IMG/VR virus record: IMGVR_UViG_3300025832_000008
Span: 1-63,566 of that record
DNA: 63,566 nt
Reading direction: 5' to 3' (one strand)
Source: a virus
Lineage: Duplodnaviria > Caudoviricetes
Made by a program: the position numbers and the translations under genes. Of this stretch, positions 1-59,009 are shown one piece after another (position 1 is the first letter of the stretch; every line of letters begins with the position of its first letter). The notes under the pieces were generated by a model that was not told where the DNA came from, did no database searches, and saw only the letters and a list, made by a program, of their open reading frames with translations.

Positions 1-65
1 TTCCGTAGAAGACTTTGTTGCTTTTTTAGTTGCCATTTGACTGTTTATTTAATTGATTTATAAGA

Positions 66-99
66 TATTATATATATTGCTTCGTTTTAAATCTGCAAG
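66..99 (-). promoter_or_regulatory. Phage-specific promoter-like motif, copy 1
   Basis: Minus-strand consensus CTTGCAGAT-N4-ACGAA-N7-TATATAATA. Lies 30 nt upstream of the ATG at 36 (gene complete at 58418..58711). Confidence 0.75.
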
Positions 100-152
100 T
101 GCTCACTTTGCGCTTGGTTAAGTTTATTATATTTAATTATTTAAATTATAGG

Positions 153-187
153 TTATTATATATATCACTTCGTTAAGAATCTGCGAG
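153..187 (-). promoter_or_regulatory. Promoter-like motif, copy 2
   Basis: ttattatatatatcacttcgttaagaatctgcgag; tandem with copy 1. Confidence 0.75.
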
Positions 188-229
188 TGTATAGCACTTC
201 GTGCTAATAATACTTTGAAGTGATCAATA

Positions 230-286
230 AAAAGTGTGACGTAGGGTGGAGTATACTCTTCCAACCCCTATTTCACTGGTCGGCCT
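230..286. repeat. Hairpin element A, copy 1
   Basis: aaaagtgtgacgtagggtggagtatactcttccaacccctatttcactggtcggcct; homologous to 1075..1131. Confidence 0.75.
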
Positions 287-311
287 ACTTAGCGAGTGTA
301 TAGCAGAGTGC

Positions 312-515
312 TTACCTTATCCAGCCATCACCATAACCGGTGATTGCTCTAACCCACTTGTAGCTTTTCTCGCCACTTTCTGGATAATCAACTCTCTCGC
401 AACCGCTTCGAAAGTCGTAGTTAAACACTACAGAATCTCTTTTTAAGAGCATTCTACATATATAGAGACCACTATAATTGAATAGTATCTCTAAGTTGTA
501 CCTTACATTCTTCAT
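312..515 (-). CDS. Hypothetical protein (67 aa)
   Basis: ORF directly downstream of promoter motif copy 3; AT-rich start context. Confidence 0.7.
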   Translation of the reverse strand: MKNVRYNLEILFNYSGLYICRMLLKRDSVVFNYDFRSGCERVDYPESGEKSYKWVRAITGYGDGWIR

Positions 516-552
516 AATAATTGGTATTTAATTGATTAATTTATTTGAATTG

Positions 553-584
553 TTATATAACTTACTTCGTCAAGTGTCTGTGAG
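553..584 (-). promoter_or_regulatory. Promoter-like motif, copy 3
   Basis: ttatataacttacttcgtcaagtgtctgtgag, upstream of the ATG at 515. Confidence 0.65.
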
Positions 585-626
585 TTAAAACACCCGCCAA
601 GCACGTTACTTGGCGAGTGTGTAGCA

Positions 627-947
627 CTATGATACTTTATTGTACCATATTTGCTTCAATTCTGATTCTATGTCTTCTGCACTAGCATTATCAAGTTCAT
701 CATTAAGTAGATCACCTAAGTAATTTCTTCTTGGTTCAACTTGTGAGCTGTATAGTGCTATCACTTTGTACATCTCTTCATAGTCAGGGATGTCTTGATC
801 TGGTGATTTCACCCAATACTTGTCTTCACTGTTGTCTTGATCATGAGTGACACAGAAAATAAATTCTTGTAGTCTCTCAAACTCTTCACCCCAAATAGTC
901 TTCACTAATTTAGAGTATGTTTCATAGTTAAATTCCTTCTTTGTCAT
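627..947 (-). CDS. Hypothetical acidic protein (106 aa)
   Basis: ORF downstream of promoter motif copy 4. Confidence 0.8.
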   Translation of the reverse strand: MTKKEFNYETYSKLVKTIWGEEFERLQEFIFCVTHDQDNSEDKYWVKSPDQDIPDYEEMYKVIALYSSQVEPRRNYLGDLLNDELDNASAEDIESELKQIWYNKVS

Positions 948-974
948 GAGTATTAAAATTAATTGATTTACAGG

Positions 975-1009
975 TTATTATATAATTTACTTCGTCAAGA
1001 ATCTGCAAG
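975..1009 (-). promoter_or_regulatory. Promoter-like motif, copy 4
   Basis: ttattatataatttacttcgtcaagaatctgcaag, upstream of the ATG at 947. Confidence 0.75.
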
Positions 1010-1074
1010 AAACGAGTGTATAGCATTACACTTACAATGACAACACCTTGAGGTGACGATGTGAATTGACATAC

Positions 1075-1131
1075 AAAAGTATGACGCAGGTCGGAGTATA
1101 CTCTTCTGACCCCTGTCTCACTGGTCAGCCT
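1075..1131. repeat. Hairpin element A, copy 2
   Basis: aaaagtatgacgcaggtcggagtatactcttctgacccctgtctcactggtcagcct. Confidence 0.75.
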
Positions 1132-1160
1132 TTAAACTTAGTATGTTAGAGAGTGGTTAT

Positions 1161-1547
1161 TTACTTAGGTAAATCACCATCCAGCCACCATTCAAAAGCA
1201 ATTTGCTTTGCTACCACATACATCAGAGCATCATAAGGTGTATAACCTTCTTCAAACTCCCAGCCATTGTAAGTTTCACACCCGAGTAACTCTAAACAAG
1301 AGATTTTGTCAAGGTGATCAAGCAGCAGTGGATCGTGGTGGTCGGTGACGTGTGTTAGAAGCGTCATACTCTCTTCCATATACTCATGAGCTTCGCTTTT
1401 ATCACTTACTCCTTCAAAGTCATACTCAGGGTGTATATATGCCACTTGCATATCATACCCATTTAACTGAGCGTCTAGTTGATACTCATCTGGTGAACCT
1501 TTCACCGATACGAGTATATCATTTTTAGTGTTACTACAATTTTCCAT
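1161..1547 (-). CDS. Hypothetical, strongly acidic protein (128 aa)
   Basis: D/E-rich ORF. Confidence 0.8.
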   Translation of the reverse strand: MENCSNTKNDILVSVKGSPDEYQLDAQLNGYDMQVAYIHPEYDFEGVSDKSEAHEYMEESMTLLTHVTDHHDPLLLDHLDKISCLELLGCETYNGWEFEEGYTPYDALMYVVAKQIAFEWWLDGDLPK

Positions 1548-1582
1548 AATATATAAAATTAAATTGGTTACTTGTTTAAATT

Positions 1583-1607
1583 AGAGGACGCTCTTGCGAG
1601 CATCCTC
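1583..1607 (-). terminator. GNRA-loop hairpin, possible weak terminator or processing site
   Basis: Minus strand GAGGATGCTC-GCAA-GAGCGTCCTC, after ORF 1616..1801; no clear U-tract. Confidence 0.5.
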
Positions 1608-1615
1608 ATTAGTTG

Positions 1616-1801
1616 TTATTTAGTAAAATAGGTGAGTCCTTTGTAGTTGATATAACTACTAATTCCTTCGCCACCTGTTGAAGTATTAATACAACCAAAT
1701 TTCTTTGGTATATTATTTAAGTCAAAATGCTCGAATTTTACTCCGTTTAGTCGAATTGCTTTCTTGAAAACAGTTTGACTGTTAAATTTAATAACGCTCA
1801 T
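1616..1801 (-). CDS. Hypothetical protein (61 aa), paralogue of 55265..55450
   Basis: Shared KFNS..FKK.I.LNG.KFEHFDL..IP.KFGC...G.GI..INYKGLTY. Confidence 0.85.
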   Translation of the reverse strand: MSVIKFNSQTVFKKAIRLNGVKFEHFDLNNIPKKFGCINTSTGGEGISSYINYKGLTYFTK

Positions 1802-1848
1802 AATAATTAATTGGTTTTAATTTATATATAAATAATTTTATATATAAA

Positions 1849-1883
1849 TTAATATATAAATCACTTCGTTAAGAATCTGCAAG
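1849..1883 (-). promoter_or_regulatory. Promoter-like motif, copy 5
   Basis: ttaatatataaatcacttcgttaagaatctgcaag. Confidence 0.75.
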
Positions 1884-1952
1884 AAATTCGCTGGTTTCTT
1901 TGCGAGTGTATAGCACTTTTTTACAGGTATTGGTTAAGGTGGTGGACGATGT

Positions 1953-1985
1953 AAAAAAAAAGGACAGCCTTGCGGCCATCCTTTT
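1953..1985 (-). terminator. Intrinsic terminator
   Basis: Minus strand AGGATGGCC-GCAA-GGCTGTCC followed by a T-run, just after the stop of 1992..2219. Confidence 0.85.
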
Positions 1986-1991
1986 GTTGGT

Positions 1992-2219
1992 TTATGACTT
2001 AGTTACTGATTCACATCCTCTAGCAAATGCTGGAACAGCATTAGTGTTGGTGTAATTTTTGTACTTGGCAAAGCATTCCATACCCTCAAATTTAACCTTA
2101 AAGGTGTTATACACTTCATCATGATCATACTTCCAATTTTCACCTTTTTTGTTGGTAAATTCAATAATTTCACCTTTACCAATTAGTGACTTTCTAATAA
2201 CAAATCTGTTGGTTTTCAT
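1992..2219 (-). CDS. Hypothetical 75-aa protein, RFVIRKSLIG family paralogue
   Basis: One of three tandem paralogues; a fourth lies at 58418..58711. Confidence 0.9.
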   Translation of the reverse strand: MKTNRFVIRKSLIGKGEIIEFTNKKGENWKYDHDEVYNTFKVKFEGMECFAKYKNYTNTNAVPAFARGCESVTKS

Positions 2220-2271
2220 AATAATAAAAATTAAATAAAATAAATTAAAAATTAAATAAATTAAATATAAA

Positions 2272-2306
2272 TTATTATATATTTAAACTCGTTAAGAATC
2301 TGCAAG
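2272..2306 (-). promoter_or_regulatory. Promoter-like motif, copy 6
   Basis: ttattatatatttaaactcgttaagaatctgcaag. Confidence 0.75.
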
Positions 2307-2354
2307 AGTGTATAGCAGCTTGCTGCTAAATAATATATACGATATATGCAGATG

Positions 2355-2385
2355 AAAAAAAGGGATACCCTTTCGGATATCCCTT
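2355..2385 (-). terminator. Intrinsic terminator
   Basis: Minus strand GGGATATCC-GAAA-GGGTATCCC plus T7. Confidence 0.88.
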
Positions 2386-2392
2386 GTGCTAC

Positions 2393-2620
2393 TTACGATT
2401 TTTTCACGCTTGGCAGCTGGCGAGCAAAAGCAGGCACCGCGTTTGTGTTCGTATAATTTTTATACTTAGCGAAGCACGGCATAGCTTCAAATTTGCTCTT
2501 GTGAGCGTTATAAACTTCATCATGATCATACGACCAGGTTTCACCCTTTTTGTTAGTGAACTCGATGGTTTCACTTTGACCAATTAATGACTTTCTGATA
2601 ACAAATCTGTTAGTTTTCAT
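2393..2620 (-). CDS. Hypothetical 75-aa protein, RFVIRKSLIG family paralogue
   Basis: Tandem paralogue with its own promoter motif and terminator. Confidence 0.9.
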   Translation of the reverse strand: MKTNRFVIRKSLIGQSETIEFTNKKGETWSYDHDEVYNAHKSKFEAMPCFAKYKNYTNTNAVPAFARQLPSVKKS

Positions 2621-2759
2621 AACATGTTGGTTTGTGTTAATAATTATAGTTAATTTGAATAATTATTAACTGGTTTATAAATAATATTTAAAAGAACTGA
2701 TATATATATAAAAATAATAAAGGTTTAATTTTTTATATTATTATTTTAAAATATATAAA

Positions 2760-2790
2760 TTAATATATATTTAAACTCGTTAAGAATCTG
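2760..2790 (-). promoter_or_regulatory. Promoter-like motif, copy 7
   Basis: ttaatatatatttaaactcgttaagaatctg, fused directly to tatagca. Confidence 0.72.
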
Positions 2791-2840
2791 TATAGCATTT
2801 GCAGCTTGCTGCAATAAAATGAGTAGATAAAAAGAAGAGT

Positions 2841-2875
2841 AAAAAAAAGGGACAGCCTCTCGGCTATCCCCTTTT
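2841..2875 (-). terminator. Intrinsic terminator
   Basis: Minus strand GGGATAGCC-GAGA-GGCTGTCCC plus T8. Confidence 0.88.
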
Positions 2876-2877
2876 GA

Positions 2878-3105
2878 TTAGGACTTGGTAACGCTTGGCA
2901 GTTCGCGAGCGAATGCAGGCACCGTGTTCGTGTTAGTATAGTTCTTATACTTGGCGAAGCAAGGCATGCTTTCGAACTTGCTCTTGTGAGCGTTATACAC
3001 TTCGTCGTGATTGTAAGACCAGGTTTGACCCTGTTTGTTGGTGAACTCAATCACTTCATTCTTACCTATTAACGACTTTCTAATAACGAATCTGTTAGTT
3101 TTCAT
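2878..3105 (-). CDS. Hypothetical 75-aa protein, RFVIRKSLIG family paralogue
   Basis: Tandem paralogue with its own promoter motif and terminator. Confidence 0.9.
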   Translation of the reverse strand: MKTNRFVIRKSLIGKNEVIEFTNKQGQTWSYNHDEVYNAHKSKFESMPCFAKYKNYTNTNTVPAFARELPSVTKS

Positions 3106-3232
3106 AACATGTTGGTTTTATGTTAATAATTATAGATTGTTTTGATAATTATTAACTGGTTTAAAATAAATTTTAATTTTTAATAAAATAATAAAATTAA
3201 ATTTTTATATTATTATTTTATTTTTATATAAA

Positions 3233-3263
3233 TTATTATATAAATTTGCTCGTTAAGAATCTG
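3233..3263 (-). promoter_or_regulatory. Promoter-like motif, copy 8
   Basis: ttattatataaatttgctcgttaagaatctg. Confidence 0.72.
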
Positions 3264-3442
3264 TATAGCATTTTATTTATATTATTTATACCATACTACC
3301 GGGGAAAAGGTGAAATACTTAGTAGATATTATATAAAACCCAAAAAAATTTACGAAAAACTCTATAAAACAGGGGGACCCCTTTCGTTTCAAAAAACTTT
3401 CTTTTTTATTTTTTTATTTTCAAAATAAGGTATTATACAAAT

Positions 3443-3482
3443 ACTCTCTACATCTAAGTACTCTCTACAAACACTCTCTACA
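3443..3482 (+). repeat. Three direct repeats of ACTCTCTACA
   Basis: At 3443, 3460 and 3473, in the divergent intergenic region. Confidence 0.8.
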
Positions 3483-3490
3483 AAAAAAAG

Positions 3491-3535
3491 TGTGACAATA
3501 GCCTTATAGATAGTATAGTAGGGGGCTAATGTCAT
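3491..3535 (+). promoter_or_regulatory. Long palindromic element P, copy 1 (operator/promoter-like)
   Basis: tgtgacaatagcc-N20-ggctaatgtcat; contains GTGACA-N16-TATAGT. Confidence 0.65.
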
Positions 3536-3591
3536 AGTTTTGAATATCTTCGTTAATGTGTAAGTATATAAGTATAATAAAAACAGTTACA

Positions 3592-4389
3592 ATGCAAACA
3601 TGGTTAAATAGAAAGATCCAGGGTCCTCGTCAAGTTGGTGGAGGTGATAAGAAAAAAGGTGGTGTAAAACCTTATGTAACATATGACCGTGACGACCCAA
3701 GGATTCAGTCGCACAGTGATAGTTTAGCTTCATATAATAATAGTAATAATGAATATTATGAACAATTTAAGTATGAGGATGATAGGAACAGGGCTGGAGA
3801 GGCAGAGTATCAAAGTAGACTTTCTGATGAGGACAGGGAATGGCAAAGGGCAAGAGGCGTTGAGCGTAAGCCCGAACCTTTACTAAGTAAGCAAGAAATT
3901 ATTTCAAGGGGTAGAAAATGGGCAGAGCCTGTTACCAATGTAAAGTATGCTTCAGATGGAGGAGACCCGTCTAAAAAGCGGCATTATATGAATTATACAC
4001 CCCCTACGGCCACTACTAGGCCAGCGGGTGTAGTAGGCCCTGGAACTCCTGGATATAGTAGTATGAAAAATAAATCAATAAAACCAACTTCTTTTATACA
4101 ATCAGATGGGTATGTGAAGGCGGTTTTTTTTGATAAACCTAAACAGGAAGTAATACTTAAGGGTTTAGAAAAGATGCCTATACTTAAAGGTAGTAGTAAG
4201 TTAGCATCTCCGAAAATTATTGATAGAAAATTAACGTCTAGAAAATTCACTACATCTCTATACAATCCCAATCCTAAAAAAAATAGTGCGGATTATAAAA
4301 AATATGGAGAAGTAAATTTTGGAGATAGAAGAGGTAACAAAGTATTGAATAAAGACCAATTTGTTAGCTTTGAGAAGTTTAAAAAATAA
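3592..4389 (+). CDS. Hypothetical basic protein, paralogue of 4395..5081 (probable start 3592)
   Basis: MQTWLNRKIQGPRQVG aligns with the N-terminus of the next ORF, which supports the ATG at 3592 over 3556. Confidence 0.8.
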   Translation: MQTWLNRKIQGPRQVGGGDKKKGGVKPYVTYDRDDPRIQSHSDSLASYNNSNNEYYEQFKYEDDRNRAGEAEYQSRLSDEDREWQRARGVERKPEPLLSKQEIISRGRKWAEPVTNVKYASDGGDPSKKRHYMNYTPPTATTRPAGVVGPGTPGYSSMKNKSIKPTSFIQSDGYVKAVFFDKPKQEVILKGLEKMPILKGSSKLASPKIIDRKLTSRKFTTSLYNPNPKKNSADYKKYGEVNFGDRRGNKVLNKDQFVSFEKFKK

Positions 4390-4394
4390 ATAAC

Positions 4395-5081
4395 ATGATG
4401 AGACAAACATGGTTAAATAGAAAAATAAATGGTCCTCGTCAAGTTGGTGAAGGTGTTAAACCTTATATAGCTAAAGACGATGCTGACTACGCTAAACGAA
4501 CACAAATGTATAATGATAGCTTAGCTGCGCACAATGCAACAGAGAATATTATCAATACTTTGAGAACCCCTAATATGATTGTCGATGATAATCCATATAC
4601 GGATCATAATTATTATACAAATGTAGAAGGTAGTACAGGTGACCTCAATAGTAAGCCATATGAATCTTATAGTGGTGTTAAGGGTGTTGCTCAAGATATT
4701 AAGACATTAAAGAGAACAGATAAGAGCTTAGGTAATACAGAGTCTGTTAAGAGTAAGATATATTATGATGGTGGAGGTGTAGGTCGTAGCCGTCACCGCT
4801 ATTCTACATTTGAATTACCGTATCGTCCAAAACCTAAGCAACCTATAGAAAGTAATAGATCTGATATGGCTAAAATGCCTACAAAAAAAGCTGCATTGTC
4901 ATCATCACAAAATAATAGCACTGTAAAATCTCGTGCACCAAAATACAATAAGCCATATAAGACTACATCTGGAAGCGATAAAAATTACGCTACAATTAAT
5001 AGATCAGATGGTACAGGTAATAAGAATTTAAGTAAGAATGAATACAATGCAGAGATGCGTTTATTTAAAAATAAAAAATAA
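4395..5081 (+). CDS. Hypothetical basic protein, paralogue of 3592..4389
   Basis: Shared QTWLNRKI.GPRQVG.G..KPY, DSLA and KPKQ..KMP motifs. Confidence 0.85.
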   Translation: MMRQTWLNRKINGPRQVGEGVKPYIAKDDADYAKRTQMYNDSLAAHNATENIINTLRTPNMIVDDNPYTDHNYYTNVEGSTGDLNSKPYESYSGVKGVAQDIKTLKRTDKSLGNTESVKSKIYYDGGGVGRSRHRYSTFELPYRPKPKQPIESNRSDMAKMPTKKAALSSSQNNSTVKSRAPKYNKPYKTTSGSDKNYATINRSDGTGNKNLSKNEYNAEMRLFKNKK

Positions 5082-9870: not shown

Positions 9871-10539
9871 ATGAAAAAAGCATTTTACAAAACGGGTTTA
9901 AATCAAGAAAGCGATAAAAAAAAGGGCGCTTATGGTAATAACACCATGCTTGGAACAAGCTCTGTAATAGGTAGAGCTACTAACATGGGTGAGGCCAAAG
10001 AAGATGAATCACCAAGCAAGACATTGTCAGAAAGTAATATGGGTAAATCACCTGAATCAGAAACTGAAGCTAGACACGCGAAAGGTCATTACAAAATGAG
10101 TGATTATTTTGGTGGTGGTCAGAACCTAAATAAAGAAGGTATTATGTCTGTTTTAAAGGCTAAGATTGAAGATAAAGCTACTGCTAGAAAAGCTAAAAAC
10201 CTAGAGAAATACAATTCTATTAAGAAAGGTGAATATGAATCTAGCAATAAAACTCTAAATAATGTAGATCCAACGGCGCCAAGTGATTCTAAAATGGACG
10301 CACGACAAGCAGCACCAGATGATAGAACTGGCCAAACCAGAGTTCAAGGAGATGCTAGCATTAAGTTGTATAACGAAAAAGACTACCCAGATAGCGAGAT
10401 GCCAGCTGGTAAGTTTAAGGCTGCACCTATAGATCTTGATATTGCAAAAGATACATCTGAATTAGATATATCTGCTTTTATGCAAGTGTCTGATGCTTTT
10501 AGTAGAGCAGCTGGAAGATCTAAAAAATACCAAAAATAA
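9871..10539 (+). CDS. Hypothetical hydrophilic protein
   Basis: ORF within the operon. Confidence 0.8.
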   Translation: MKKAFYKTGLNQESDKKKGAYGNNTMLGTSSVIGRATNMGEAKEDESPSKTLSESNMGKSPESETEARHAKGHYKMSDYFGGGQNLNKEGIMSVLKAKIEDKATARKAKNLEKYNSIKKGEYESSNKTLNNVDPTAPSDSKMDARQAAPDDRTGQTRVQGDASIKLYNEKDYPDSEMPAGKFKAAPIDLDIAKDTSELDISAFMQVSDAFSRAAGRSKKYQK

Positions 10540-10545
10540 AAAACA

Positions 10546-10770
10546 ATGAATCAATACGACACACAGCAACCAATATCAGCACAACCCCAGGTACAACCTG
10601 AACAAGTGCAAGCGACAGACCCTATTACACAAGCAGCTTTAGCAACGGCTCCTGTGCCAGTAGAAGATATATATTCTCCTTCAAAGGGTGTTGGATACAA
10701 GCAATCAGATACATTAGATAATGCCGCATTAAATATGTTTGGCTCAGAAGCAAATAGAAACCTAAGATAA
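10546..10770 (+). CDS. Hypothetical protein (Q/P-rich)
   Basis: ORF within the operon. Confidence 0.75.
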   Translation: MNQYDTQQPISAQPQVQPEQVQATDPITQAALATAPVPVEDIYSPSKGVGYKQSDTLDNAALNMFGSEANRNLR

Positions 10771-10772
10771 TT

Positions 10773-10982
10773 ATGAAAAAAAATAACATATACGAAGCTC
10801 CAAATAGTAGAAAGTACGCAGCAGAACAAGGTATTGATGCTACTTGGGAAGGTCCATTAAATATGGATAATATGCCAATCGCGCCTGGACGTAGTTCTGG
10901 AGCTGATGGTATTCAATTACTTGCAAAGAATGAGTATCCTTATCTAGCAGGTCCAATCACTCAAAGAGCAAAGGGTGAATAA
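10773..10982 (+). CDS. Hypothetical protein
   Basis: ORF within the operon. Confidence 0.75.
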   Translation: MKKNNIYEAPNSRKYAAEQGIDATWEGPLNMDNMPIAPGRSSGADGIQLLAKNEYPYLAGPITQRAKGE

Positions 10983-35506: not shown

Positions 35507-38500
35507 ATGGCAGAACAAAACAATAATGGGTGGGTACCACCAACTGACGCAATTAAAGTAGAAGACTCAATTGCAGTAGAAGAAACTTGGGTTCCACCAA
35601 CCGATGCAATTAAAGTAGAAGATTCAATTGCAGTAGATCAAGTGGGAAAGTCAGAAGGTGTTGGAACTGTGGAAGCAAGTACAACACCGTCGAACGAACA
35701 AGCTTCATTAGAAACACCTACAATAGAATCAAAAAAACAATTGACGCCGCAGGTAAAGCCTGGCGAGAAAATGGTTGATATAAGCGGAAGCTTATACACA
35801 TTTAAAGAGATTGAGAATTCAGATGCTTATAAAAAAGGTAAGTATAAAACCGTAGAAGATTATGTATCTAAGTTTGGTAAAAACGCTAGCTACATAGAAT
35901 CTATTGATGTAGAAACTGAATTACCTACAATAGAAGAAGCGTCTACTTATAAAGCAAAGGAACTTGCTATTGGTAAAGAGAAGAACAACGAGATCAACAG
36001 TAAGTTAAAAAGTATTAACGAGTCTGATCCTTCTGTAGTAAAGACTTTCATCAATAAAAAGGTAGATGATGCTTTAGTTGATTTCCCGTATGAATATGAA
36101 TATGAAACAATTAGATCTGGAGGTGAACCAAAAACAGTTCCAACTAAAATACCACCAACGGAAGAACAATTAAAAGAGTTTTTAGGTGAATCAGTTTATG
36201 ATCTATATACTCAATATAGAAAAACAGGAACTATAGATAAAGAAAACATGGCTTTAGCTTCTGAAATGTTTCCATATGAAGTGGATGCAGCGGTTAAAGA
36301 AGTTAAAGGTAAAACTTCTGAGTTTTATCAAGCTAATTTAGATAGATCAGAAAGAAAAGCATTAAACTTGTTTCAAAGTGGTGGTATTGACTCTGATCTT
36401 CAACTTCAACATCAAGATGGTTTGAGAGATGAGCAAGAGTACTACAGGTTAACTGGTACAAAGCTTTACGGTGAAAAAGAGTTAATGGGTCAAACTTATA
36501 ATCCATCGCCATTAACACTATACGATCTAGGATTAACAGATAAACTTCCAACAGAAACAAAAGAAAAATACATTAAAGCTACTTCTGTTAAAATTAAAAA
36601 CGATTTTAATGAACTAAATCAAGACGCAATAGATCTTAATAAATCTGTTGAAGATTACAATGTAAAATACGGTTCAGATCTTAGTAGATATAACGAGTTG
36701 GTTTATAATTTAAATAACTTCAATGAAAATACTGGTACAGTAGATTCACCTGATGTATCTAAAAATGATGACATTGATAGATTTGCTTCTCTTAAAAAGA
36801 CGATTAGAGCAATAGAAGGTAACAATAACTATAATGCATACAATGGTAATCCTACTAATGACAAAGTAATATTCACAGATATGACAGTCCAACAAGCTAT
36901 GGATTGGCAAAAAAATAATGGTGGAAAAGCAATTGGTATTTATCAATATAAGAATGAATCTTTGCTAGAGGCATTGAAAGGAACTGGTATATCTAAAGAT
37001 GTTAAGTTTAACGAAGAAGTTCAAGAAAAGCTAGCTGACTGGAGTATAAGGGTTAAACGAAAAGGTAATAAGTATCTTTCTGGAGATATTACATACGATG
37101 AGTTAGCTGAGCTAATAGCTAGTGAATGGGCTGCTCTTCCAATGATTAGTGGTGATAGAAAAGGTAAAAGTCGTTATGGTGGAAGTAATGAATCTCAAAT
37201 CACTGCTGAAGCTTATGAAGATATAATAAAAGCTATTCAGGTATATAAAGACGTAGATCAATCTTATGAATCTATGTATGAAGAATATGTACAATTACAG
37301 AATTCTTTATCTGATTCAAAAGCTTTTGAACTAAGTGATAATTTTAAATCTCAAGCTGATGATATAAAACAAAGGTCTCTACAAATAAGTGAGATGGCTG
37401 GTTCTACAAATGATTTAAGTGCTGTTGTTGATGCTACTAATAAAAACTATAGTTCAATTGATAGAGCATTGTTACAATTGGAAAAATCATTTTTAGGTTC
37501 AGGAGCTATGCTAGGAGCTGGTGCACTTAAAATTTCAGCCGACGTTCTTAATTATGTTAACGATATTGGTGATAATGATAGAGCGCCAACGGGTTTAACT
37601 CCTAAGATAGATAGTTTATACTCTGATGCGATAAACTACAACGAAGCTCTAGCGACAGAGTTATCTGAAGACTTTGTTAGGGATTACACCCTTGACGATG
37701 TTATGTCTCTTGACGTTACAAAAGCAAATTACTTAGGTCAAGTACTCGCAAACAACTCACCATCTATAGCTACCGTTTTGTCAATGCCTTTAATTGGTGG
37801 TATATCAGGTGTTTCTAGTCTTGGTGCAGGTACGTTTGGTAGAATGATGGCTCAAAGAGCATTTAATAATGCTGGTAGAAATCTAGCAACAGCTGCGTTC
37901 TTTAATATGGAAGCTGGTGGAAAGTTAGCAGAGCTTGAAATGTCACAGAGAAATGCTAAAAAATTAATACCAATACTTGAAGGGTCTTTAGCAAATGCTA
38001 CTACACCAGCAGAAAGGCTAGAACTTGAAAAGCAAATAAACGAGCAAACAAATTTATTGAATGCGGGTATGATGAGGAAAGGTTTTTCATCATTAATGTA
38101 TGGTAGTATAGCTTCGTATGCAGAAAGGTTTGGTACACTTTCTTACGTTAACAATTTAAAAAGGTTTACAACTAGAGGTGGTGGTTTACTAAAGAAAACA
38201 TTATATGGAGGAGCTGGTATGTCTTATAACGTTGGTATTGAAGAGCTTGAAGAAATAGGCACTCAAATTGGACATAACTTTGTTGATATAGCTTTATTCG
38301 ATGCTGATAAAAGCATGTTAGATGGAATTGATAAAGATTTCTTAGCTAACGTATTTATATCAAGTGTTGCAATACAAGGACCTGGTAGAGCATCTAATAT
38401 GTATTCGATGCTTAGAGATGAGGTTATGACATTGGATGAAAAGAAAACTGTTAGAGATCTTCGTAATGAATTAATAAAAATAGAAGCTGATATACGTGGT

Positions 38501-41500
38501 GGTAAATTAAGTCAAGAAGAAATAAAAGATCTAAAGAAAAGAAAAGTTCAAATAGTACGCTCTGCTGTTATGAATGATGCTATCACTGTTTCTAAAATAA
38601 ACGCTATAATGGCGGAGGATAAAATAACAGGTAACAATGATCTTAAAGAAATACTTGATTTAGCTAGAAAGAAAAGAGCTAAGATCAGAGAGATCAAAGA
38701 GCAAGCATCTACAGGTGATACATCTAAATCAGGTATAGCATACGCTAACAAACTTCAAGAAGAATGGAATGAATTAAATAAATTACATAATAGGTTTGCT
38801 TCTAAGACTATGCAAAAGAAGATTAAGCAAGCTGAAGCAATGAATACTATAAATCCAGCTGAATCTGCTCGCGCTCATTCTATGTTTGAATATTATTCTA
38901 ATCTTGCTGCGTCAAACGTTTATGTTAATAAGAATAAAAACAATACTAGATATGATGTTTTAAAACTCTACAAGACTACTAAAAATGGAATGATTGAGTT
39001 TTTAAAAGAAGATGAGGCACAAGCAGAAATACTTAGATGGGCCGAGGCTAACGATTTGTCAGTTGGTCAAACTATAGATATAGTAGATCAATATAACGAG
39101 GGTAGTAATGCTATTTTTGATTCAAACTCTAACCGTATTATAGTATTTGAAGACAATATATTAAAAAGTATATACTCTCAAGGCACGAATAGCTTAGCGG
39201 CGAGGTTTGCTGCTGTAAGTCCACTACATGAATTGCTTCATGCATACAATAAAAGTATTAAGATAACAGATGAAGGTTTATTAAAGAATATGGATCTTGC
39301 TGTTCAAGGTCTTAATGATTTAATTGAGCAAAAGAAAAACAATGGCGAGATCAGTGAAGCTGAATATAATTACTTCCAAGCTCGTAAAGCATTGTATGAT
39401 AAGACAGATGTAAAAAACGAAGAACTTATAACATTAGTAAATGACTTGGTTGCCACTAACGTTATTAGTTCAAATGAGTTTACTCAATTATATCAACTTA
39501 AAACAGCTGTTAATGCTCTTAATAGATCTTTTATAGGTGAGGCAAATGATTACAACCATATAGAGACTGGTGATGACTTGTTTAACTATATATCAACTTT
39601 CCAAAAAGTATCAAAGAAACAAGCATTAAGTATTACTGGTACACCTCAAGAAGCTGATGAAGAGAGATTAAGAAGATCTAGAGGTGATGTGCGTGAATTA
39701 CCTGAAGAAGATAAAAAAGAACTTGATGAAACTGTAAAGGTAGCTAAGAAAATATACAAAGAAGAAAAGCGACAAACAAGACCAATTAGAGAAGCTAAAG
39801 CTAAAATAGAAGCTCTTACAGCAAATAATGTATTTGAACATGCTAATGCTTTATATGATTTATTAGGCGTTGATGGTGCTACTGAGATTACATATCTATG
39901 GGAAAACGAAGTATCAAGAAGATTAGCTACTAGTGATGCTTTTTCTGGATACAGGTTAAATGATCAGTTTGAAGAGAAGAAACCAGATATTATACAAATA
40001 GCATTATACGGAACAGAAAGAAGACCTAGTGATTCTGTATTAGGATTGATTAAAGGTTACAGTAAAGAATCTGGTGTTCCATTAGCTGCTTGGATAAATA
40101 AATATATAAATAGAAAGATAAATGGTGTTATTAGAGAGGAGTTTCCTGATTTATCGGGTAAGCAAATACAAATAACTGACAACATAGAAAGATTTAATCC
40201 TGCTTTTAGAACTGATGCAGAAGATACTTCTTTTGAAGAAGAGGACATAAGTCCTGGTGCGGCTCCATCAAAATTAATTAAGAAGGCTAAATCATTAACA
40301 CTTATAGATCCAATAAGGATTCTTGATACTTGGGATGATGACACAAAAGACAAAGTACTTAGTAATATAAGAGAGAGATTAGCTGAATTAGATTTAAAAA
40401 AATTAACATTTGCTGAATTAAGAGATTTAGATGTTAATTCCACTGCTTTAATGTTTGGTGTTAAGGTTAATAAGATTACTGAAAAGAAAGATAATCTTAA
40501 TTCAACTGAAATGCTTAACGCTCAAAAAACATTTAAAGAGATTGGTTTTAAGAAAATACTTGATCTACTACCATTTGCTACAGTTCCAACACCAGAGGGT
40601 GGTTCTAGACGTATTACAAAGGGTATTGATACACAAGCAATATCTGATGAGTTAATTGGAACTTCCACTGGACTACCTTACAATTTGCTTAAAGGTCTTT
40701 ATGATAAAAGTGATAGGGTTAAAACAGCTGCGGGCATACCCGAATATACTAAGAAAAAAGGTTTATCAGCTGAAGATGTTGCTTTATACTTAGGTATGAA
40801 AGAAGACGGTACCGTTGTTGATAACAATCAAAGAGGAGCTGTTGGGCAGAACATTAAGGGTATGATGGAGCTTGTAGGTAGATTAATAACAAATAGAGCT
40901 GTTAGAGTTGAATTACAACAGTCTCCACAATACATGGTTTATGCAGCTAATATTGCTGCTGGTAAATCTCCATTAATGGCATCTAAATCTATTGATGGCA
41001 AAGTTGCAATAGCTAATAAAAAAATAGCTAAAAGTGCTGGTATAAAAGGATTTGAAAAAATGTCAGATTATACTTTGCTTAATGCGATTGAGAGCAAGCA
41101 AGATGAAATGGTTAAAGCAAGTATTAAGACTTACGATAGTAAAAATCTTAGTAAAGATTTTAATTTAATACTACAGCATAAAACCGGTATGCGATTTAAT
41201 AAGATTATATCTGGTGATCAGGCTAGTGTATTAGGTAACGAAAAGGGTAGACTTGATGTTTGGATACCACCATCAGCTGAAGACTTTGTTGGTCTGTTAT
41301 ATAAGACATTACCAAAGGGTAAGCAAGGAGAAGAGGCCATGAGGTATTATAAGAGGAATTTATTTGATCAATTTAATAAAGGTGAAAACGCTATAGATGC
41401 TCTAACTGTTCAGATGTCAAATGATTATAAAGCTATTAAGAAAGATATGCTTATTAGACCAAAGTATTTATCAAAAAAGAATAAAACTGGTTCAACTAAT

Positions 41501-43204
41501 GAGCAATCTATGAGAGCTTGGATGTTTCATAAAGGCGGTCATAAAATACCTGGTTTTAATGATAAAGACTTGGCTGACCATTTACGCGTAGTAAATAATG
41601 ACGATTCTCTTAGAGAATTAGCTAAGGCTATTATGAAGATAACTAAAAGCAGTACATATACAAAACCAAGTAAAGGATGGAAGAATGGTAGTGTACATAA
41701 TGATATGTATAATTACTTAAGAAAAGAAGCTAGAGAAAAGTATCTAAAAGAGTGGCAAGTTAATGCAGACGCTATATTTAGTAAAGATAATATGAATAAA
41801 CTTCAAGCATTGTATGGTAAAGGTTATTCTATAGCTCTTCAAGAAATGCTAAAGACCATGAAAGAGGGTAGAAATAATGAGTTTAAAAATGATGAAGTTA
41901 ATAGATTAATGGATTATATAAATGGCTCAACCGCGGCCATAATGTTCTTAAATACTAGATCTGCTTTATTACAAACTATATCAGCTATTAACTTTATAAA
42001 TTGGTCTTACAATAACCCAGCTATGGCTGCTAAAGCGTTTGCTAATCAAAAGCAATACTGGAAAGATTTTTACTATTTATTTAATTCTGGTTACTTAGTT
42101 GCTAGACGAAAGGGATTAAAAATAAACGTTAGTGAAGCTGAGATTGCCGAAGCTGGTCAACAGCCACAAGACAAGTTTAGATCTGTAATGGCTTTAATGT
42201 TAAAAAGAGGTTACGCTCCTACACAGTTTGCTGATAGTTTTGCAATAGCTAGCGGTGGTGCTACGTTTTATAGAAACTTAGTTGATAAATTAAAAAAAGA
42301 AGTTGATGCTAAAGGAAATAAAGTTTATACTACAGAGCAAGCTGAAGAAATGGCGTTTGAAGAGTTTAGAGTTATATCAGAAGACTCTCAGCAATCAAGT
42401 AGAACAGATAAAGTTAGTATGCAGCAAGCTACTGGAACTGGTAGGTTAATATTAGCATTTGCTAACGCACCAATGCAATATGCTAGACTATCTAAAAAAG
42501 CATTTATTGATCTTAAAAACGGTAGAGGAGATACTAAAACAAATATCTCTAAAATAATTTACTACACAGTAGTTCAAAACGTGATATTCAACTATGTTCA
42601 ATCAGCTATGTTTAAATTCCTTTTTGGAGATTCTGATGATGAAGAAGAAGAGGAAAAACAATATGATATGGCAAACTCTATGCTTAACAGTATATTGAGA
42701 GGTATTGGTATATACGGTGCGTTTGCTGCGATGGCTAAAGACGTTGCGTTTAAATGGTGGAAAGAAAGTCATAAGAAAAGACCTAAATATACTAATGCTG
42801 TGTGGGAGGTAAGTAATATAGCTCCAGCAATTGATTCTAAAGTTAGTAAACTACGTGCATTAGCAAGTGCTGCTGAAAGAGGTGCATTTGATGATCTTGA
42901 TACTGGTAATTGGATACTACCAAGTGCAAAGGTTTTCACAGCAGTAACAAATATTCCTTTAGACAGAGCTGTAAGTAAATTCAATAATATAGAGGCAGCG
43001 ATATCAGCTCAACATGAGTTATGGCAAAGCGTTTTTATGCTTGGTGGTTTTGAAGCTTGGCAGCTTGGTATAAGGAGTGAGGAAAATAGATCGTCAAGTG
43101 ATAGTGGTGGATTTGATTTCGAAGAAAACGAAGGATATAATGAAGAAACTGGTCAGCCAGCAAAAGAAAATATACCAGGAGAGTATTCTTATAGAAAGAT
43201 ATAG
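35507..43204 (+). CDS. Giant (2565 aa) polyvalent ejection-like protein with lysozyme-like and HExxH domains
   Basis: I...EG..NYN...MTV.Q...Q...A.G.YQ...F....QE.LA...EWA.LP (lambda-lysozyme-like, ~36780-37250); HELLH at 39227. Confidence 0.75.
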   Translation: MAEQNNNGWVPPTDAIKVEDSIAVEETWVPPTDAIKVEDSIAVDQVGKSEGVGTVEASTTPSNEQASLETPTIESKKQLTPQVKPGEKMVDISGSLYTFKEIENSDAYKKGKYKTVEDYVSKFGKNASYIESIDVETELPTIEEASTYKAKELAIGKEKNNEINSKLKSINESDPSVVKTFINKKVDDALVDFPYEYEYETIRSGGEPKTVPTKIPPTEEQLKEFLGESVYDLYTQYRKTGTIDKENMALASEMFPYEVDAAVKEVKGKTSEFYQANLDRSERKALNLFQSGGIDSDLQLQHQDGLRDEQEYYRLTGTKLYGEKELMGQTYNPSPLTLYDLGLTDKLPTETKEKYIKATSVKIKNDFNELNQDAIDLNKSVEDYNVKYGSDLSRYNELVYNLNNFNENTGTVDSPDVSKNDDIDRFASLKKTIRAIEGNNNYNAYNGNPTNDKVIFTDMTVQQAMDWQKNNGGKAIGIYQYKNESLLEALKGTGISKDVKFNEEVQEKLADWSIRVKRKGNKYLSGDITYDELAELIASEWAALPMISGDRKGKSRYGGSNESQITAEAYEDIIKAIQVYKDVDQSYESMYEEYVQLQNSLSDSKAFELSDNFKSQADDIKQRSLQISEMAGSTNDLSAVVDATNKNYSSIDRALLQLEKSFLGSGAMLGAGALKISADVLNYVNDIGDNDRAPTGLTPKIDSLYSDAINYNEALATELSEDFVRDYTLDDVMSLDVTKANYLGQVLANNSPSIATVLSMPLIGGISGVSSLGAGTFGRMMAQRAFNNAGRNLATAAFFNMEAGGKLAELEMSQRNAKKLIPILEGSLANATTPAERLELEKQINEQTNLLNAGMMRKGFSSLMYGSIASYAERFGTLSYVNNLKRFTTRGGGLLKKTLYGGAGMSYNVGIEELEEIGTQIGHNFVDIALFDADKSMLDGIDKDFLANVFISSVAIQGPGRASNMYSMLRDEVMTLDEKKTVRDLRNELIKIEADIRGGKLSQEEIKDLKKRKVQIVRSAVMNDAITVSKINAIMAEDKITGNNDLKEILDLARKKRAKIREIKEQASTGDTSKSGIAYANKLQEEWNELNKLHNRFASKTMQKKIKQAEAMNTINPAESARAHSMFEYYSNLAASNVYVNKNKNNTRYDVLKLYKTTKNGMIEFLKEDEAQAEILRWAEANDLSVGQTIDIVDQYNEGSNAIFDSNSNRIIVFEDNILKSIYSQGTNSLAARFAAVSPLHELLHAYNKSIKITDEGLLKNMDLAVQGLNDLIEQKKNNGEISEAEYNYFQARKALYDKTDVKNEELITLVNDLVATNVISSNEFTQLYQLKTAVNALNRSFIGEANDYNHIETGDDLFNYISTFQKVSKKQALSITGTPQEADEERLRRSRGDVRELPEEDKKELDETVKVAKKIYKEEKRQTRPIREAKAKIEALTANNVFEHANALYDLLGVDGATEITYLWENEVSRRLATSDAFSGYRLNDQFEEKKPDIIQIALYGTERRPSDSVLGLIKGYSKESGVPLAAWINKYINRKINGVIREEFPDLSGKQIQITDNIERFNPAFRTDAEDTSFEEEDISPGAAPSKLIKKAKSLTLIDPIRILDTWDDDTKDKVLSNIRERLAELDLKKLTFAELRDLDVNSTALMFGVKVNKITEKKDNLNSTEMLNAQKTFKEIGFKKILDLLPFATVPTPEGGSRRITKGIDTQAISDELIGTSTGLPYNLLKGLYDKSDRVKTAAGIPEYTKKKGLSAEDVALYLGMKEDGTVVDNNQRGAVGQNIKGMMELVGRLITNRAVRVELQQSPQYMVYAANIAAGKSPLMASKSIDGKVAIANKKIAKSAGIKGFEKMSDYTLLNAIESKQDEMVKASIKTYDSKNLSKDFNLILQHKTGMRFNKIISGDQASVLGNEKGRLDVWIPPSAEDFVGLLYKTLPKGKQGEEAMRYYKRNLFDQFNKGENAIDALTVQMSNDYKAIKKDMLIRPKYLSKKNKTGSTNEQSMRAWMFHKGGHKIPGFNDKDLADHLRVVNNDDSLRELAKAIMKITKSSTYTKPSKGWKNGSVHNDMYNYLRKEAREKYLKEWQVNADAIFSKDNMNKLQALYGKGYSIALQEMLKTMKEGRNNEFKNDEVNRLMDYINGSTAAIMFLNTRSALLQTISAINFINWSYNNPAMAAKAFANQKQYWKDFYYLFNSGYLVARRKGLKINVSEAEIAEAGQQPQDKFRSVMALMLKRGYAPTQFADSFAIASGGATFYRNLVDKLKKEVDAKGNKVYTTEQAEEMAFEEFRVISEDSQQSSRTDKVSMQQATGTGRLILAFANAPMQYARLSKKAFIDLKNGRGDTKTNISKIIYYTVVQNVIFNYVQSAMFKFLFGDSDDEEEEEKQYDMANSMLNSILRGIGIYGAFAAMAKDVAFKWWKESHKKRPKYTNAVWEVSNIAPAIDSKVSKLRALASAAERGAFDDLDTGNWILPSAKVFTAVTNIPLDRAVSKFNNIEAAISAQHELWQSVFMLGGFEAWQLGIRSEENRSSSDSGGFDFEENEGYNEETGQPAKENIPGEYSYRKI

Positions 43205-45120: not shown

Positions 45121-45121
45121 A

Positions 45122-45778: not shown

Positions 45779-46013
45779 TATATTTATTATAGTAATACAA
45801 GTAGTATTCGTAAAGTTTTTCCCATATAACAACTTTACCAAACGACTCTTTACTTCTGTTTATTTTACCGTTTAATTCTATTTCTAAATACCATTTATTA
45901 TTATTCTTTTTATCACTAATAGGAGAAACAAATATCTTATTACGTATACACCATTCAGACGCATCCATCTCTCTGTTTGAAGCATAATAAGAACCCATTA
46001 ATCCCATTGCCAA
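45771..46013 (-). CDS. Hypothetical protein
   Basis: ORF within the operon. Confidence 0.7.
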   Translation of the reverse strand: MAMGLMGSYYASNREMDASEWCIRNKIFVSPISDKKNNNKWYLEIELNGKINRSKESFGKVVIWEKLYEYYLYYYNKYND

Positions 46014-58186: not shown

Positions 58187-58220
58187 AAAAAAGAGAGACC
58201 ACCAATAAAGGTGATCCCTC
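58187..58220 (-). terminator. Intrinsic terminator
   Basis: Minus strand GAGGGATCACC-TTTATT-GGTGGTCTCTC followed by TTTTTT. Confidence 0.8.
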
Positions 58221-58247
58221 ATAACCAACCAACTATTAAATTATAAA

Positions 58248-58417: not shown

Positions 58418-58711
58418 TTATTCACTTGCATCTGTAATAGTAACACTGTCAAGAGATCTAGCGAACGCCGGTACTGCATTGGAATTGGTATAATTACCAT
58501 ATTTCTCAAAGCAAGGCATTTCATCAAACCTTTGCTTATTACTATTATATACTTCATCATGGTCATAGGTATACTTTGTACCTTTCGAGTTGGTGAAGCT
58601 TACTAGTGTGCCTGTTCCAATAAGAGATTTTCTTATTACAAAGCGTTTAGTAATAATAGAGTTAACTGTTTTTGCTTCCGTAGAAGACTTTGTTGCTTTT
58701 TTAGTTGCCAT
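58418..58711 (-). CDS. Hypothetical 97-aa protein, divergent RFVIRKSLIG family paralogue
   Basis: RFVIRKSLIG...FTN.KG..Y.YDHDEVYN...MPCF.KY.NYTN.NAVPAFAR. Confidence 0.9.
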   Translation of the reverse strand: MATKKATKSSTEAKTVNSIITKRFVIRKSLIGTGTLVSFTNSKGTKYTYDHDEVYNSNKQRFDEMPCFEKYGNYTNSNAVPAFARSLDSVTITDASE

Positions 58712-59009
58712 TTGACTGTTTATTTAATTGATTTATAAGATATTATATATATTGCTTCGTTTTAAATCTGCAAGTGCTCACTTTGCGCTTGGTTAAGTTC
58801 ATTATATTTAATTATTTAAATTATAGGTTATTATATATATCACTTCGTTAAGAATCTGCGAGTGTATAGCACTTCGTGCTTGTAATAATTTTACTCAATA
58901 ACAGACAATACTTTGAAGTGATCAATAAAAAGTGTGACGTAGGGTGGAGTATACTCTTCCAACCCCTATTTCACTGGTCGGCCTACTTAGCGAGTGTATA
59001 TCAGAGTGC

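Follow-up and report, generated by a model that had tools for sequence, protein, structure and literature searches.

The locus studied here raises two questions: why does one marine phage genome carry four genes for the same small protein, and what might that protein do? The genes lie in a stretch of viral DNA of 63,566 nucleotides, the whole of which is called the window below. A first-pass annotation of this DNA had described three tandem genes and a fourth at 58418, each encoding a protein of 75 aa. All four ORFs are indeed present on the minus strand, but this length holds only for the tandem copies A, B and C; copy D encodes 97 aa, with an N-terminal extension of 20 residues that is rich in Lys, Thr and Ser. 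The genes and the repeat in which some of them occur are the following.

1992..2219, minus strand: copy A, 75 aa, GC3 0.29; the most diverged among the tandem three
2393..2620, minus strand: copy B, 75 aa, GC3 0.44
2878..3105, minus strand: copy C, 75 aa, GC3 0.59, the genome maximum; heads the leftward early arm
58418..58711, minus strand: copy D, 97 aa
60690-60917, 61091-61318 and 61576-61803, minus strand: second copies of A, B and C, respectively, in the right-hand repeat
1..4868, no strand: left copy of the contig-terminal repeat, whose partner is 58676-63566

In an alignment of the four proteins, 43 of 75 positions are invariant, and B, C and D are 81, 79 and 64% identical to A. A family profile matches A to D and the three repeat copies over their full length (E 4e-41 to 4e-38). 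The residues that are near-invariant in an alignment of 62 sequences (F6, Y31, H33, D34, C49, Y56, T57 and P63) are all kept in A to D. Pairwise identity among the four is 59-82% for nucleotides and 63-86% for proteins, with pS of 0.63-0.96 and pN of 0.07-0.27; the only unsaturated pair is B/C (dS 1.36, dN 0.078, dN/dS 0.058). These figures confirm the earlier observation of heavy synonymous divergence alongside a conserved protein, and they support the purifying selection that had been proposed for all copies; a dN/dS near 1 was not seen in any of them. Overlapping ORFs in alternative frames within each copy were rejected as genes because of the saturation at synonymous sites in the main frame. 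The longest nucleotide runs common to the coding copies span only 11-20 nt, so recombination has little substrate for removing copies from the array, in line with its long retention. The four genes are real paralogues that diverged long ago and are kept under purifying selection.

Copies A to C are inside a contig-terminal repeat of 4868/4891 nt (~4.9 kb), which bears out, at the level of the contig, the location given earlier for the tandem three. The left boundary of the repeat falls in D, at codon 12. Positions 499-4868 are identical in both repeat copies, while eight substitutions occur at 303-498 and about three more, together with a 23-nt indel, lie nearer the edge. Since the repeat copies are not identical, and since none of five complete relatives has a family gene at both genome ends, a doubling of the dosage of A to C by a physical terminal repeat is unproven. 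In 38 of 80 relatives, a contig end is at most 2 kb away from the family array.

These data bear on the possibility that the additional copies are duplicates in decay or artefacts of the assembly, with no biological dosage behind them, which we regard as very improbable. The terminal repeat may be an assembly wrap-around, given its ~11 substitutions and its indel near one edge, the lack of a complete relative with family genes at both ends and the classification of the record by IMG/VR as linear without end repeats. However, this bears only on the doubling of A to C; all four distinct paralogues are intact, evolve under purifying selection and have regulatory signals of their own. In addition, more than one copy is present at 37 of 80 related viral loci: 43 of the 80 have one copy, 33 have two and 4 have three, always on one strand. 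Five near-complete relatives have 2, 3, 1, 2 and 2 copies.

The regulatory signals suggest that each copy would be its own transcription unit, in which a phage-specific promoter block and an AT-rich leader precede the ORF and an intrinsic terminator follows it. The repeated promoter-like block upstream of each copy comprises TGCTATACA, a gap of 0-27 nt, CAGATTCTTAACGA and an AT-rich, TATA-like stretch. The elements are listed here.

3250..3270, minus strand: promoter-like block of C, in which the 9-mer TGCTATACA overlaps the 14-mer CAGATTCTTAACGA; an AT-rich leader comes next
2777..2797, minus strand: promoter-like block of B, with the pattern of 9-mer and 14-mer
2289..2317, minus strand: promoter-like block of A, in which 6 nt separate the 9-mer from the 14-mer
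58845..58871, minus strand: promoter-like block of D, with the pattern of 9-mer and 14-mer
992..1915, minus strand: two other units with the same promoter class, their blocks at 1866-1915 and 992-1025
2844..2875, minus strand: terminator-like hairpin after C, 14 pairs and a T-run
2360..2385, minus strand: terminator-like hairpin after B, 11 pairs and a T-run
1958..1985, minus strand: terminator-like hairpin after A, 12 pairs and a T-run
58193..58220, minus strand: terminator-like hairpin ~200 nt past the stop codon of D, 11 pairs and a T-run

The first-pass annotation had called the genes separately promoted and separately terminated. The first statement is supported by the promoter-like block before each copy, and the pattern of a hairpin and T-run behind all four agrees with the second. 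The 14-mer has 12 matches, against 0.59 expected, and the 14-mer block is present at six unique sites, every one of which is within the repeat region and on the minus strand. Four of these precede family copies, so that the copies would account for four of the six units with a promoter class that is restricted to the head of the leftward early arm. ORFs of 61 and 128 aa follow the block at 1866-1915 and one of 106 aa follows that at 992-1025; none of the three ORFs has a Pfam match. Copy D has a second, degenerate block, lacking the 9-mer, ~65 nt downstream of the first, and the left-end counterpart of its block, at 170-196, has no complete gene behind it. The hairpins of A, B and C lie 7-10 nt past the stop codons. 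Among relatives, a strict terminator is found within 110 nt of 10 of 116 family genes, compared to 28 of 2241 other ORFs, a 7-fold enrichment. Since terminators follow only a minority of the relatives' family genes, the neat unit design is clearest in this genome. Rfam and tRNA scans gave no matches.

Gene multiplicity and the strongest codon-third-position bias in the genome together point to an abundant immediate-early product. Copies C and B hold ranks 1 and 2 of 74 genes in GC3, whose median is 0.24. In 78 related loci, GC3 is above the locus median in 89 of 119 family genes, and 32 of the 119 exceed every long ORF of their own locus. The copies might accordingly be read as the phage's main immediate-early product, made in large amounts, although the raised GC3 could stem from causes other than translational selection. 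The sequencing runs that match the region include no RNA run among the matches listed. The dosage amplification proposed earlier is plausible in view of the four transcription units and of the GC3 of B and C, with codon usage serving only as a proxy. The protein is probably made in bulk.

The 9-mer invites a different explanation, namely that the protein is a sequence-specific regulator that recognizes TGCTATACA/TGTATAGCA by early and middle promoters, and that it shuts off its own promoters, activates the next class, or both. Such a regulator would act much like MotA of phage T4. The 9-mer occurs 21 times, always on the minus strand, against 1.2 times expected, and adjoins every family copy. 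It has 2, 14, 5, 8 and 12 sites in five complete relatives that carry the family (0-1 for a reversed control pattern) and 0, 0, 1, 0 and 0 in five that lack it. Its orientation and its distance to the core block differ between phages, as expected of a factor site rather than of a core promoter element. However, phylogeny confounds this co-occurrence, as the carriers all belong to a single clade, with terminase identity of 70-79%, and the non-carriers are at 62% or less. The exact 9-mer is absent from 41 of 80 family-bearing loci, two family copies in locus L001 lie behind a different upstream block, and the relative G001 has only 2 sites. The phage also encodes its own sigma factor, which could read the motif, and four gene copies seem excessive for about 15 sites. 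We therefore consider such a regulator unlikely. A virion RNA polymerase of the crAss type was rejected as reader of the promoters, as the 2565-aa ORF in question lacks DxDxD and has no Pfam, PHROG or PDB match. Among the matches listed in a full-text literature search for the 9-mer, there were only unrelated primer or shRNA matches.

The first-pass annotation did not recognize the family, and our searches bear this out: Pfam, PHROG, NCBIfam and Foldseek yielded no confident match to anything characterized. Pfam has nothing above cut-off for A to D, and any one Pfam family is weakly matched by at most 2 of 62 members. PHROG matches occur only at E >= 0.015 and are to families of unknown function, NCBIfam has no match, and a PDB sequence search with the family profile has none at E < 0.69. 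An AlphaFold model (pLDDT 96) has the predicted fold beta-beta-beta, three short helices, beta, helix. With this model, nothing significant was found by Foldseek in the PDB (best E 0.82), by a wide structural search (best Z 3.4) or in BFVD, where the best rows are unnamed proteins with TM about 0.5 and E of 0.2-0.9; a protein atlas returned only unnamed viral clusters (score 0.81). As modelled, the domain is a basic alpha/beta domain of roughly 70 residues, whose confident prediction matches no known fold. A homodimer prediction (score 0.04, mark 0.42) speaks neither for nor against binding.

Several more specific assignments were rejected. The top weak structural neighbours are PvuII (Z 3.4) and several other nuclease folds (Z 2-3), but a PD-(D/E)xK nuclease is contradicted by the near-invariant columns, which have no (D/E)xK. 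PDC-M03B, a candidate defence protein of PADLOC, is matched by 4 of 62 members at E <= 0.01, over 47 residues only; the match was traced into Bacteroidota genomes, and a profile-profile comparison with a full-length bacterial member gave a probability of 0.12%. That bacterial member adjoins a gene for a HipA-like kinase. By eye, the other end domains of the glycosylase-like proteins P0280 and P0294 resemble the family and the Cys/His-rich N-terminal region of P0185 resembles an HNH domain; hhalign gave probabilities of only 0.24% and 0.44% for the former, and Pfam has no such match for the latter.

Clues to function come from charge and from fusion proteins. The proteins are small, at 75-97 aa. 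The pI of A to D is 9.3-9.7 (median of 62 members 9.56), and many members have N-terminal tails rich in Lys, Ala and Thr. The family domain also forms the C-terminal module of certain larger proteins, namely 5 of the 25 homologues of a protein with an N-terminal glycosylase fold of the UDG superfamily. The AF2 model has pLDDT 86, its best Foldseek match has E 1.7e-4 and probability 1.00, and all 50 of the 50 matches listed are UDG, TDG, UdgX or SMUG1. The glycosylase-like domain is found at 2 loci in viral contigs and in 1 of 401 Bacteroidota genomes. One protein, P0122, has the family domain twice, in tandem. A separate search for longer, fused relatives found none, which is weak evidence.

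The fusion to a DNA-glycosylase-fold domain points to DNA, as do the basic pI and the Lys-rich tails. The protein probably binds DNA, and the family is quite possibly an abundantly made, immediate-early DNA-binding protein of a histone-like or architectural kind, a reading that we stop short of calling likely. As a histone-like or nucleoid-associated protein, it might coat or shape either the phage genome as it enters or the chromosome of the host, at an early stage of infection. Several points weaken this reading. DNA-binding folds are absent among the structural matches: neither the Foldseek PDB matches nor the wide structural search include folds of the HU/IHF, H-NS, Fis, Lrp or Alba type, although a fold of this sort may escape such searches. 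The fusion evidence consists of five proteins, and the glycosylase-like domain is rare. Finally, the basic charge would equally suit the binding of RNA or of an acidic protein partner. Of the three functions proposed for the protein earlier, binding to the repeated motif is the best supported if it is taken broadly, as DNA binding, while its specific link to TGTATAGCA is weak in view of the loci without the exact 9-mer and of the phage-encoded sigma factor.

The same fusions are compatible with a more particular function, in which the domain reads a DNA base that is modified or damaged. As part of cellular proteins, it would direct a glycosylase of the UDG superfamily to such DNA, and the phage would fill the cell with the free-standing reader within minutes of infection. 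The reader would coat the phage's own, possibly pyrimidine-modified, genome against base-excising or restricting enzymes, and thus be a competitive shield made from the very module that the attacker uses. The early, multi-copy design is also compatible with this proposal, as are the thymidylate-synthase-like and MazG-like genes in the replication arm. Nonetheless, we rate it as quite improbable.

Other fusions might hint at a partner other than DNA. In three proteins, the domain follows a region that weakly resembles the C-terminal part of GreA/GreB, and the C-terminal domain of GreA binds RNA polymerase. The family might thus be a host-takeover factor that targets RNA polymerase or another conserved host protein, RNA or the ribosome, and its early position and high conservation are expected of a ligand of conserved host machinery. 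However, the GreA-like matches (E 0.0012-0.0025) are below the Pfam cut-off, the same proteins carry a hydrophobic N-terminal segment, and the PDB hits listed include no fold match to known small RNA-polymerase binders. A host-takeover factor of this sort seems rather unlikely to us.

The distribution of the family raises the remaining alternative. Of 8000 scored candidate clusters, 7964 match the family, which is abundant in marine viromes; at 50% identity, there are 329 family-matching clusters. A tblastn search found no match in 50,697 GenBank phage records, and the family was not found in five cultured or deposited relatives. A survey of genomes (185,579 species, one genome each) gave 4 matches, all on contigs of metagenome-assembled genomes. 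In the family tree, 21 rows make up a deep second clade, with 100% support, and D is placed in a separate subclade; it is 38-75% identical to copies in phages whose terminases are 70-79% identical. The domain is clade-specific: it belongs to one group of marine, podovirus-like phages, very abundant and uncultured, whose closest cultured relatives infect Flavobacteriia. In the available parts of the literature on elemo phages and on early genes of marine podoviruses, we found nothing on the family.

A small, multi-copy gene at the head of the early arm that is confined to phage contigs and absent from the nearest cultured or deposited relatives could encode a stoichiometric anti-defence protein, i.e., an early, dosage-amplified immune inhibitor or a sponge for signalling nucleotides. 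Accessory counter-defence genes are often absent from near relatives. We nevertheless think it improbable, and do not favour the inhibitor or signal sponge that had been proposed. The PDB matches listed include no solved sponge or inhibitor fold, although such a fold may escape this search, and no relation to PADLOC or other defence-related families holds. DNA-mimic inhibitors are acidic, whereas this family is basic. Its strong purifying selection and its divergence, which does not outpace that of the terminase in the clade, are unlike the turnover of an arms race, and the domain doubles as a module on glycosylase-fold proteins.

Whichever function applies, few unannotated small proteins are as common as this family in its abundant clade of marine phages. 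Its position is a most prominent one: it heads the early arm, with as many as four independent units and the strongest codon bias. If the protein is a DNA coat or an architectural protein, it would represent a new family of phage histone-like proteins and give a handle on host takeover by phages of Flavobacteriia, for which there is hardly any molecular biology of takeover. If it is a shield or a counter-defence protein, the glycosylase fusions would hint at its target. On either reading, it is a cheap, well-defined candidate for expression, structure and gel-shift work.

We now compare the family with known systems. Tad1, Tad2, Acb2 and Ocr are also small, early proteins whose effect depends on stoichiometry, but no fold or sequence match to them was found among the matches listed. 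The family differs from them in that it is basic, evolves slowly, occurs as many as four times in a genome and also forms part of larger, DNA-enzyme-like proteins. Proteins of the HU/IHF type, such as TF1 of SPO1, resemble the family in being small and basic, and its presumed abundance, Lys-rich tails and association with a DNA enzyme would fit this type. The predicted fold differs, however, and matches neither HU/IHF nor another solved DNA-binding fold.

The arrangement of the genes also has counterparts. In phage T5, the pre-early (first-step-transfer) genes sit in a long terminal repeat and so occur twice per genome. Here, too, early genes are inside a kilobase-scale repeat, although this repeat is known at the level of the contig only, its boundaries cut genes and its copies differ. 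There is no sequence or fold relation to T5 and no evidence here of two-step injection. The Bacillus phage SPO1 reportedly has a host-takeover module in its terminal redundancy, described by Stewart and colleagues in 1998. Like the locus studied here, this module has numerous tiny genes placed at the end of the genome or in its terminal repeat, a strong early promoter for each gene or pair, and terminators between the units. The genes in both phages are presumed to be the first to act after injection. In the window, the SPO1-type architecture is recognized purely by patterns in the DNA, namely six promoter blocks and four terminator-like hairpins. The genes of the SPO1 module are unrelated to each other and to the family; here, by contrast, four of the six units are paralogues of a single domain.

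Four paralogous small proteins are encoded in the window:

1992-2219, minus strand: copy A, 75 aa
2393-2620, minus strand: copy B, 75 aa
2878-3105, minus strand: copy C, 75 aa
58418-58711, minus strand: copy D, 97 aa

The first-pass annotation had described these paralogues as conserved in protein while diverged at synonymous sites, and had suggested purifying selection on every copy. Their alignment bears this out, with 43 of 75 columns invariant and pairwise identities of 63-86% in protein and 59-82% in nucleotides. The longest nucleotide run common to two coding copies is 11-20 nt. The pN values (0.07-0.27) are well under pS (0.63-0.96), and dN/dS is 0.058 for B and C, the only pair with unsaturated synonymous sites. 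Therefore, the description was correct and purifying selection acts on all copies.

No family in Pfam, PHROG or NCBIfam fits these proteins, and 'hypothetical protein' is the only name given in any source. A profile search matched 7964 of the 8000 candidates scored, and gave 329 clusters at 50% identity (E <= 0.001). There was no match by tblastn in 50,697 GenBank phage records, and a profile search of five related phage genomes found no family member, while the same search, run on the window as a positive control, recovered all seven places there. One genome from each of 185,579 species yielded four matches, every one of them on a contig of a metagenome-assembled genome. The observation is real, and none of the known families accounts for it.

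Among 80 related viral loci, 43 have one copy, 33 have two and 4 have three, always on a single strand; the four copies in the window genome are the highest number seen. In a tree of 125 copies, based on only 78 alignment columns, A, B and C cluster together (SH-aLRT 88), D stands apart from them with copies of other phages (support 81), and 21 copies form a deep second clade with full support. These groupings and the multi-copy loci thus indicate that duplication in the family is old and recurrent. Copy D is 38-75% identical to the copies in five relatives, in which the terminase is 70-79% identical; the family is conserved, yet no more than the terminase.

The window is an entire IMG/VR virus record, a single contig of 63,566 bp with a CheckV completeness of 100. 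It has the following layout:

~3.5 to 43 kb, rightward: structural arm (large terminase, portal, virion proteins)
3556-4389 and 4395-5081, plus strand: adjoining ORFs of 277 and 228 aa, opening the late arm
35507-43204, plus strand: ORF of 2565 aa, closing the structural arm
~43 kb round to 3.1 kb, leftward: arm with primase/helicase, Erf, exonuclease, resolvase, thymidylate-synthase-like, MazG-like and sigma factor genes
44332-45841, minus strand: adjoining MazG-like pyrophosphatase and thymidylate-synthase-like genes
49616-50362, minus strand: phage-encoded RNA polymerase sigma factor (phrog_351, E 3.7e-20)

The 2565-aa ORF has no sequence match in Pfam, PHROG or PDB, and lacks a DxDxD motif. 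The translated 277-aa and 228-aa ORFs have similar N-termini, and a Pfam scan of both gave no match. By terminase (87 records in all), the nearest record is an uncultured freshwater podovirus (62% identity), followed by Flavobacterium elemo phages (44.6%) and then Cellulophaga, Tenacibaculum and Maribacter phages. The first 7 kb of the window occur, in whole or part, in 21 marine metagenome runs from 20 studies.

Positions 1-4868 pair with 58676-63566 as a repeat. In IMG/VR, the record is listed as linear and lacking end repeats. The two repeat copies are identical over 499-4868, and their differences are confined to the first 498 nt: eight substitutions at 303-498 and, nearer the edge, roughly three more and a 23-nt indel. 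Codon 12 of D marks the left boundary, and the right boundary cuts the 228-aa ORF. At the level of the contig, this 4.9-kb repeat could be either a physical repeat or a wrap-around through strain variation, so we count four paralogues rather than seven genes, leaving out A-C in the right-hand copy. In five near-complete relatives (58-68 kb), family genes occupy one place only, and in the four linear ones the distance from there to a contig end is 52-3642 nt. Moreover, a contig end lies at most 2 kb from the family array in 38 of the 80 related loci (34 downstream, 5 upstream). It is therefore likely that a genome terminus or an assembly-breaking repeat lies near the family genes. The repeat also holds one element without an evident protein product:

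215-560, minus strand: GC-richer island without a convincing gene (partner ~58913-59258), flanked by the 106-aa unit and D's promoter-like block

None of 100 shuffles folds as well as this island (z -3.64), which also contains most of the differences between the repeat copies; one of these removes a 9-mer from the right copy. The island may be a structured RNA or a DNA element, and scans with Rfam and ARAGORN gave no hit.

A repeated block precedes every copy, consisting of the 9-mer TGCTATACA, 0-27 nt, the 14-mer CAGATTCTTAACGA and an AT-rich, TATA-like stretch. A second, degenerate promoter-like block belongs to D. When up to two mismatches are allowed, the 14-mer is matched 12 times (ten times exactly and twice with one mismatch), compared with 0.59 expected. 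These matches amount to six unique sites, every one of them on the minus strand and inside the repeat region. Family copies follow four of the sites, and a 61/128-aa unit and the 106-aa unit follow the other two. By these positions, the family thus makes up four of the six units of a putative distinct promoter class heading the early arm. Hairpins of 12, 11 and 14 pairs, each with a T-run, lie no more than ~10 nt beyond A, B and C, respectively; the 5 kb scanned held 5 terminator-like sites versus 2.4 in shuffles. For D, the terminator-like hairpin lies ~200 nt past the stop. The intervening ORF-free ~200 nt (58221-58417, minus strand) fold moderately (z -2.39; equalled by 3 of 200 shuffles).

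Taken alone, the 9-mer is found 21 times, where 1.2 occurrences would be expected; every site is on the minus strand, and the 43-58 kb arm contains eight. Its counts in relatives follow the family, with 2, 14, 5, 8 and 12 sites in complete carriers and 0, 0, 1, 0 and 0 in relatives that lack the family, as would suit a regulator that binds this motif specifically. However, carriers and non-carriers are separate clades, the exact 9-mer is absent from 41 of the 80 family-bearing loci, and the related locus L001 has a different block ahead of the shared core (GATAATATAA...TGTAA-like). The phage also encodes its own sigma factor, a candidate reader of phage-specific promoter motifs. We consider such a regulator unlikely. 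The 9-mer upstream of family genes is inverted in some relatives. Across the clade (L001, the related loci L056 and L075, and the window), early genes are preceded at 40-80 nt by a core like GATAATATAA-N-TGTAA, and the element upstream of it varies between sub-clades. This core is unlike the Bacteroidetes consensus. A conserved inverted repeat, GTGACAATAG ... ~25-30 nt ... ATGTCAC, also recurs in the clade, adjoining family genes and the start of the late arm:

~58111-58158, minus orientation: window
~3490-3536, plus orientation: window
~10240-10290: L001
~10545-10600: L056
~10850-10905: L075

Its possible roles include those of an operator, a small RNA or a clade-specific signal.

Codon usage bears on expression. 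Among the 74 predicted genes (median GC3 0.24, 95th percentile 0.37), C ranks first (0.59) and B second (0.44), while A (0.29) and D (0.26) are unremarkable. In 78 related loci, 89 of 119 family genes exceed the median GC3 of their own locus's long ORFs, and 32 exceed every one. Raised GC3 may signify high expression, and other causes are possible.

Family members are basic (median pI 9.56 for 62 members; 9.3-9.7 for A-D), and many, including D, have variable N-terminal tails rich in Lys, Ala, Thr and Ser. The domain also occurs within larger proteins. One of them (P0122) has it twice in tandem; three (P0198, P0214, P0207) place a hydrophobic segment and a weak, sub-threshold GreA-C-like region before it; and in five (P0235, P0225, P0279, P0296, P0297) it is a C-terminal module. 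The N-terminal domain of these five was modelled with pLDDT 86, and all 50 of the Foldseek matches listed belong to the uracil/thymine-DNA glycosylase superfamily (best E 1.7e-4, probability 1.00). Among 25 homologues of this domain, five carry the family domain, thirteen stand alone (253-274 aa), and the remaining seven are longer proteins whose extensions are different or unidentified. Outside the window, P0235 and P0279-P0301 represent an unannotated UDG-superfamily-fold family, either stand-alone (~255 aa) or with various extra domains at either end. It is rare, occurring at 2 loci in viral contigs and in 1 of 401 Bacteroidota genomes. The simplest role for such a small, basic module, attached to an enzyme of DNA-repair type, would be DNA binding or DNA targeting, a clue drawn from few proteins. 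MazG-like and thymidylate-synthase-like pairs go with modified pyrimidines in some phages, and the pair in the window may be relevant to this clue.

AlphaFold2, given a 62-sequence alignment, predicts three strands, three short helices, a strand and a helix (pLDDT 96.4). Foldseek against PDB gave a best E of 0.82, and a comparison with BFVD 0.21. In a wider search of 48,161 chains, the best match was PvuII (Z 3.4), then CBS domains and assorted nuclease folds (Z 2-3). Models without a clear match typically reach Z 7-8, and the family model is therefore unusually isolated, although a missing match does not prove a new fold.

The best-supported reading, held tentatively at somewhat short of an even chance, is that these genes would encode a small protein of a new family that is made abundantly and immediate-early and binds DNA. 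Among the rivals, an anti-defence inhibitor or sponge and a regulator specific to the 9-mer seem equally improbable, and a binder of a host protein or RNA slightly more so. SPO1 and T5 carry host-takeover modules within their terminal repeats. The arrangement in the window is similar to these, but differs in that it is made of paralogues of one domain.
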